Assembly (NCBI GenBank): GCA_964593795.1
Contig: CAZQJC010000017.1
Coordinates: forward strand, 17,389-81,388
From: an uncultured Myxococcales bacterium
Lineage (GTDB): Bacteria; Myxococcota_A; Polyangia; JAHFDS01
Length of the DNA: 64,000 nt
Direction of reading: 5' to 3'
The position numbers were made by a program, and so were the translations under genes. The notes beneath the pieces were generated by a model. That model was not told where the DNA came from, did not search any database, and saw nothing but the letters and a program-made list of their open reading frames with translations. Numbering within the stretch: position 1 is the first letter of the stretch; each line of letters starts with the position of its first letter. This document shows, piece by piece, positions 36,045-36,203 of this stretch.

Positions 36045-36203
36045 GGGGGGGGCCGATCCGGGGACGATGGCGCGGAATCGAGCCGCCACGTCATCGCCCT
36101 CGGATCGACCCCCTCCGGGCCCAACCCAACCGGTTGGGGGGCCGATCCGGGGACGATGGCGCGGAATCGAGCCGCCGCGTCATCGCCCTCGGATCGACCC
36201 CCC
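36045..36203. repeat. Two copies of a 69-bp element (period 90 bp) with imperfect terminal inverted repeats
   Basis: Copy 1 at 36045-36113 and copy 2 at 36135-36203 are identical except one a/g. Each begins ggggggccgatccgg and ends ccggatcgaccccc-like (gggggGccGATCCG ... CGGATCgaccccc). Lies between convergent genes. Confidence 0.6.

Follow-up and report, generated by a model that had tools for sequence, protein, structure and literature searches.

A duplicated extragenic palindromic repeat in terminator position between two convergent genes of a Myxococcota bacterium

The Correia or NEMIS elements of Neisseria are MITEs: small non-coding elements with inverted ends that lie at the ends of genes and can alter transcript stability. 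Hairpin-only ("I-shaped") and bidirectional intrinsic terminators are found between convergent genes in high-GC bacteria, and their efficiency when no U-tract is present is disputed. In Enterobacteria and Pseudomonas, the palindromes found at gene 3′ ends are the REPs and BIMEs, which are extragenic, imperfect, GC-rich and clustered; the REPs that make up a BIME alternate in orientation. To our knowledge, there are hardly any descriptions of REP-like repeats from Myxococcota. The REPs of E. coli are extragenic palindromic stem-loops, 14-40 nt in length, and are mostly transcribed; those with a stop codon fewer than 16 nt away down-regulate translation (PMC12306157). REPINs are longer hairpins (60-110 nt; the GI REPIN of P. 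fluorescens, a near-perfect hairpin, measures 89 bp), each arm of which holds a short REP palindrome. Tandem arrays of these long hairpin repeats are known and indeed frequent, and REPIN families are restricted to single lineages and vertically inherited (PMC3337134).

Here we describe a pair of long palindromic repeats that recalls several of these systems. The pair lies in a 64-kb stretch of DNA (hereafter the window, meaning the whole of the stretch analysed), which has a G+C content of 71%. The window belongs to the conserved chromosomal core (nuo, tilS, ftsH, folP, glmM, smpB), and the named homologues of its proteins come from Polyangia and Myxococcota MAGs. Both repeat units fall wholly inside the 171-nt gap that separates two convergent stop codons, and are therefore extragenic in the sense used for REPs. 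The elements of the region are listed below with their positions in the window.

34165 to 36039, plus strand: upstream convergent gene, encoding a predicted lipoprotein of 624 aa, which has a signal peptide with LGGC lipobox and a Gly/Ala-rich linker
36040 to 36046: left spacer remnant, GGAACGG
36047 to 36113, no strand assigned: unit 1, a 67-nt imperfect palindrome whose stem can be extended to 36044-36117
36114 to 36135, no strand assigned: 22-nt spacer between the units, TCCGGGCCCAACCCAACCGGTT, without similarity to the units' outer flanks
36136 to 36203, no strand assigned: unit 2, which over 36136-36202 agrees with unit 1 at 66 of 67 positions, the palindrome reaching 36203
36204 to 36210: right spacer remnant, TGCCGCG, separating unit 2 from the regulator's stop codon
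36211 to 37605, minus strand: downstream convergent gene, encoding a 464-aa NtrC/PilR-type sigma-54-dependent response regulator (domains Response_reg, Sigma54_activat and HTH_8)

The TGA stop codon of the lipoprotein-like gene (36037-36039) is located 4-7 nt ahead of the unit 1 stem. On the opposite side, the TGA of the regulator gene (36211-36213, reverse complement) is located 3-7 nt ahead of the unit 2 stem as read on the minus strand. No Pfam domain was found in the 624-aa protein. ARAGORN places a tRNA-Leu(CAA) gene at 37698-37783, between a small response-regulator gene and the NtrC-type gene, indicating that the 380-aa ORF listed at 37633-38775 is spurious.

The two units are direct repeats with a start-to-start spacing of 89 nt. 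A preliminary description of this DNA had already recognized a duplicated element between convergent genes, and had its coordinates and setting right; the near-identity that it noted also stands, its figures (68 of 69 positions, 90 bp apart) being replaced by 66 of 67 and 89 nt. The single difference between the copies (A36088 in unit 1, G36177 in unit 2) converts a C·A mismatch into a C-G pair on the plus strand. The 37-nt core of the unit matches the window exactly twice, against none expected from 100 dinucleotide-preserving shuffles. Copy-to-copy identity breaks off sharply at both ends of the units and the sequences flanking the two copies are unrelated. This excludes the tandem duplication of an 89-nt block and leaves two discrete copies with a 22-nt spacer between them. 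The same description had set CRISPR aside, rightly so: two 67-nt repeats around one 22-nt spacer do not make an array of at least three repeats of about 24-48 nt interspersed with unique spacers of comparable size, and no cas domains appeared in Pfam scans of the window ORFs. As a separate observation, the end of the spacer and the first three G of unit 2 form a perfect 14-nt palindrome (CCCAACCGGTTGGG, 36125-36138), preceded by a duplication of CCCAA. Having no loop, this palindrome resembles a symmetric site in duplex DNA more than a hairpin.

Each unit is an imperfect palindrome over its full length; unit 2, aligned with its own reverse complement, matches it at 52 of 68 positions. The preliminary description had seen in each unit terminal inverted repeats able to form a long stem; the stem is there, and it is not terminal, as it takes up the entire unit. 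The mismatches between the arms are all transitions, appearing as G·U on one strand and A·C on the other, and are evenly split between the strands. RNA folding of each unit, which that description had proposed as a check, yielded stems of 27-29 bp on both strands (z -5.7 to -6.6). The predicted free energy is -57.2 kcal/mol (plus strand) and -56.1 kcal/mol (minus strand) for unit 1, and -59.4 and -57.1 kcal/mol, respectively, for unit 2. Folded as DNA, the units reach -25 to -30 kcal/mol (z -3.2 to -4.9). The 29-nt arms folded singly as DNA give -3.9 and -2.7 kcal/mol (z = +0.8 and 0.0) and hold no inner palindrome.

These hairpins stand apart from others in the region. When the whole 64-kb window was folded in sliding 80-nt segments on both strands, the units ranked first and third, and a strict Watson-Crick palindrome scan returned them as the two best hairpins. 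The next-best palindrome in the window, a 13-bp terminator-like stem at 9822-9851, was taken as the yardstick of an ordinary terminator-like hairpin; the unit stems are twice the length of the window's ordinary stems of this type. This yardstick is a perfect stem with a 4-nt loop (GAAGCGGGAGGCC-CGAA-GGCCTCCCGCTTC), directly 3′ of the minus-strand gene at 9857-11728. No comparable hairpin was found by palindrome scanning in about 97 kb from five related Myxococcota loci, the longest stem there being a single one of 11 bp.

Comparison with relatives made it possible to follow the history of the site. The 90%-identity cluster of the regulator protein (P0001) led to three loci, L086, L087 and L088. 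L087 (GCA_023248855.1) and L088 are syntenic with the window on both sides, at about 85% DNA identity. Their homology to the window ends at 36044 on one side and at 36210 on the other. In L087 and L088, the two stop codons are separated by a spacer of just 37 nt, GGAACCGCAACTCCGTCGCTTCGACGGACGATACCGG, which contains one hairpin only, of 7 bp, placed about 10 nt away from either stop codon. L086 is closer (about 90% DNA identity), and covers 25 nt past the regulator stop before its contig ends. Unit 2 begins 8 nt past this stop in the window, so the comparison with L086 reaches the position of unit 2, not that of unit 1; the 25 nt contain a different hairpin, of 5-6 bp, and lack unit 2. This tail (11414-11438 of L086) also contains CTTATCCG, an 8-mer present in the E. 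coli REP consensus (PMC12306157), which we judge to be a coincidence. In another relative, the ERZ27297570 contig with P0002, a gap of 260 nt follows the regulator gene. A further locus, L085, whose regulator is 77% identical, was uninformative as an insertion test, its neighbouring gene being a different one. Homologue searches with the lipoprotein returned nothing, or only proteins at 33-37% identity, and no additional orthologous spacers were gained from them.

Pairwise DNA identities give the tree ((window, L086), L087). Together with the lack of the units in the relatives, this makes gain in the window lineage the most parsimonious account and, as judged from these sequence comparisons, the pair was probably gained there. 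The only intergenic stretch that the window has in common with L087 is GGAAC, within the left remnant. When the 37 nt of the window's gap that lie outside the units were aligned to the equally long L087 spacer, nothing beyond this pentamer could be aligned; the score of 2 falls within the range of shuffled sequences (mean -5.2, sd 5.7, max 13) and we therefore treat the equal length of 37 nt as a coincidence. The presence of a small hairpin in the same place in the relatives suggests that a hairpin function at this site is conserved, the window carrying an oversized and duplicated replacement. Four arm mismatches are common to both units against one private difference in 67 positions, indicating that the palindrome predates its duplication. 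A palindrome older than the duplication yet missing from this site in the relatives is more readily explained by arrival from elsewhere than by growth at the site itself.

The repeat pair is genuine, lineage-specific and striking in its structure, and fits the broad class of extragenic palindromic repeats in terminator position. We tentatively favour the reading that a small palindromic repeat of the extragenic kind, REP-like if the term is taken broadly, recently entered the spacer, displacing the short ancestral hairpin, and that the resulting pair acts as 3′ RNA hairpins; entry by insertion, transcription of the units and any effect on expression are what we infer. Like the REPs and BIMEs of Enterobacteria and Pseudomonas, the units are extragenic, lie at gene 3′ ends, are imperfect GC-rich palindromes and occur clustered. 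As with E. coli REPs, they sit no more than 15 nt from a stop codon, where REPs are associated with translational down-regulation, and would be expected to serve as mRNA 3′ hairpins (PMC12306157). They differ from REPs in their length of 67-68 nt (14-40 nt in E. coli), in having no consensus in common with them and in being known in two copies only, and from BIMEs in that they are direct repeats whereas the REPs of a BIME alternate. The notion of a repeat family here stands on two adjacent copies.

The site also has much in common with I-shaped and bidirectional terminators, since the GC-rich stem comes directly past convergent stop codons and L087 has its single small hairpin in the same place. 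Unlike in such terminators, the stems are of 27-29 bp (7-13 bp for the other terminator-like stems here), they are duplicated, and no A- or U-tracts flank them. The stems are followed by CCCCCTCCGGG and CCCCCCTGCCG on the plus strand and by AACCGGTTGGG and GTTCCTCACGG on the minus strand. Neither hairpin is followed by a U-tract on either strand, hence canonical intrinsic termination is not predicted, and a terminator scan of 35800-36500 for a stem plus U-tract returned 0 sites. Two of the identities that the preliminary description had offered survive in part. A bidirectional terminator pair remains among the best descriptions as far as "terminator-like" goes, the U-tract signature being missing; of its "REP/MITE-like" repeat, the REP-like half is likewise among the best descriptions, and the MITE half fails the tests given below.

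Transcription from either convergent gene would meet a unit 3-7 nt past the stop codon, so that each mRNA would end in, or carry, a GC-rich hairpin of 27-29 bp. At about -57 kcal/mol, such a hairpin would be expected to block 3′-to-5′ exonucleases, thereby defining and stabilizing the mRNA 3′ end, and to impede read-through towards the opposite gene. As in the case of E. coli REPs that have a stop codon fewer than 16 nt away (PMC12306157), its proximity to the stop may also stall terminating ribosomes and lower translation. A palindromic repeat would then have taken the terminator position between convergent genes, possibly tuning the expression of the sigma-54 regulator and of the lipoprotein in one lineage. 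Should the repeat belong to a genome-wide family, the catalogue would gain a modest new entry; an orphan locus on its own would have little wider consequence.

The strongest competitor, which we nonetheless consider rather unlikely, is a purely local origin. The hairpin would have arisen in the spacer itself, for example by template-switch or fold-back lengthening of a small terminator stem, and been copied once nearby; it would be unique to the locus, without a family, and either neutral or active only as a terminator or insulator. Template switching is documented as a process that makes and perfects inverted repeats in bacteria (PMC5941160). The spacer evolves fast, L087/L088 and L086 have different small hairpins there, and the two near-identical copies, the only ones found, are adjacent and in the same orientation. 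A local origin also agrees with the outcome of all searches for similar sequence. In the window and in L085-L088, nhmmer (--max) and blastn-short detected no third copy and no solo or diverged arm, which sets the count at two units, at one locus, in 64 kb. A degenerate pattern that fits both arms on both strands (GGYCGATCCGRGGNCGATGRCG) was run on 185,579 species-representative genomes (GTDB) and on JGI metagenome contigs, and no further copy was obtained. The pattern matched at 138 loci (66 in genomes, 72 in metagenomes), all of them single-arm matches of 22-27 nt in unrelated taxa that we ascribe to chance. The genome scan missed the window's own units, implying that the source genome lies outside that collection. 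A 19-nt version of the arm gave 17 single-arm matches in viral contigs, chance only, and "distant" blastn searches of plasmids and phages gave only matches with E values of 0.1-0.5, all within coding genes. Finally, the translated open frame across the element had 0 matches among 1.84 billion protein representatives.

The preliminary description had suggested counting copies in the rest of the genome; the collections searched, outside which the source genome lies, gave none beyond the two in the window. That description had set its reading against an element unique to this site and without stable structure beyond short terminal stems; uniqueness holds within public data, and the structure goes far beyond such stems. 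What speaks against a local origin comes from the units and their surroundings. Ordinary tandem duplication would leave a repeated spacer and none is present, the flanks being unrelated. Neither the ancestral spacer nor the DNA nearby contains a sequence from which the arms could derive. The ratio of four common arm mismatches to one private difference is that of an older element copied recently, and relatives at 85-90% identity are without it here.

A second alternative makes the locus a single tandem cluster of an active, non-autonomous mobile element present in tens to hundreds of copies elsewhere in the source genome. Such an element would move either like a REPIN, through a RAYT or IS200-type Y1 enzyme, or as a MITE, through a DDE transposase. 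The discrete boundaries of the units, their absence from the orthologous site in relatives and their occurrence twice in the same orientation speak for this idea, and REPINs are also long near-perfect hairpins of this size range, often arrayed in tandem within a single lineage (PMC3337134). We regard an active element as improbable all the same. The arms of the units, unlike those of REPINs, contain no palindromes of their own (DNA fold z = +0.8 and 0.0), which means that the unit is not a REP doublet, and the REPIN assignment was rejected on this ground. No RAYT or transposase domain was identified by Pfam among the approximately 40 ORFs of the window. A search for an IS-like partner sharing the terminal 17 nt (17-mer, up to 3 mismatches) gave only chance-level matches outside the units. 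The pattern scans gave no arm match in Myxococcota, be it among GTDB species representatives or in metagenomes, and the 64 kb contain a single locus.

The MITE version fares no better. The units resemble Correia/NEMIS elements in being small and non-coding, in having inverted ends and in their position at gene ends. They lack the target-site duplication, the internal non-palindromic core, the dispersed copies and the parent IS of these elements. No target-site duplication is seen at either unit, the flanks (GGAACGG and TCCGGGC for unit 1, ACCGGTT and CTGCCGC for unit 2) forming no direct repeat. The tests for a MITE thus failed, the inverted ends following from the full palindrome, and the "miniature TIR element" of the preliminary description is not supported for the same reasons and for want of an IS with the same ends. 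Other candidates were dropped by eye: a retron msd, since the vicinity has no reverse transcriptase gene; an integron attC site, for want of a cassette; and a G-quadruplex, the G-runs being too far apart.

A bolder proposal, to which we give slightly less credence than to the active element, is that the pair represents a family of mobile hairpins, each one long single palindrome, that is species-restricted, occurs in Polyangia-type Myxococcota and is so far undescribed. This family would be distinct both from REP doublets and from MITEs that form target-site duplications, would be moved by an enzyme yet to be recognized, and would insert beside stop codons.

It is very unlikely that the units are two copies of a gene for a structured small RNA, some 70 nt long and driven by a promoter of its own, one of the identities put forward in the preliminary description. 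The hairpins are very stable and attract sub-threshold Rfam matches. All of these matches are to eukaryotic or viral miRNA-precursor models, they occur equally on both strands, and they fall far below threshold, as expected of a generic long hairpin; no Rfam 15 family reaches its gathering threshold, the best being MIR9772 with 35.3 bits against a threshold of 64. No sigma-70-type promoter is predicted in 35800-36500, and a sigma-54 promoter in the loop was considered and dropped, the -12 element and the spacing being a misfit. Moreover, the units are not conserved in relatives, and both strands fold equally well, with G·U pairs and mismatches in balance, which argues for symmetry at the DNA level and against a strand-specific RNA.

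An assembly artefact, a single hairpin spuriously doubled in what appears to be a MAG-type contig, where hairpins and repeats can confuse assemblers, scarcely deserves credence: the copies are distinguished by one position and by their flanks, and an independent k=31 Logan assembly (L001, SRR13076506), 100% identical over 6,441 nt, ends at 36076, precisely where the k=31 graph is required to branch if the reads contain two left contexts (G vs T before the unit), which confirms the duplication as far as these two copies go.

Several other features came to light in the course of this analysis. In L086, positions 2360-2560 contain an intergenic hairpin of about 190 nt made of inverted runs of hexamer repeats, (GTTCAC/GTCCAC)n, with a predicted energy of -84.8 kcal/mol. 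It is not found at the orthologous site of the window (approximately 44879-44885); L086, the closest relative, thus carries a lineage-specific intergenic palindrome of another kind. ARAGORN also reports a tRNA-Gly(GCC) at 47378-47470 of the window which, at 93 nt, is unusually long for a tRNA of this type. Long runs of 15- and 30-nt repeats at 6596-8063 and 11397-11587, consisting of Gly-Met-rich codons (GGCATGGGC...), are apparently low-complexity coding sequence. A 2.4-kb segment (27454-29882) is missing from L087, where the genes for a PALP enzyme and for an Apyc1-like metallo-beta-lactamase are 6 nt apart. The segment contains a 375-aa ORF without a Pfam domain and a 394-aa ORF with a cytochrome c domain, as well as 15-nt GC-rich coding repeats at 29502-29710. 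Lastly, the plus-strand gene at 30654-33284, which adjoins the Apyc1-like MBL-fold gene, encodes a bacterial protein resembling the major vault protein (Pfam MVP_shoulder, 2.9e-24; Vault_3, 5.7e-09) and is conserved in both L087 and L001.
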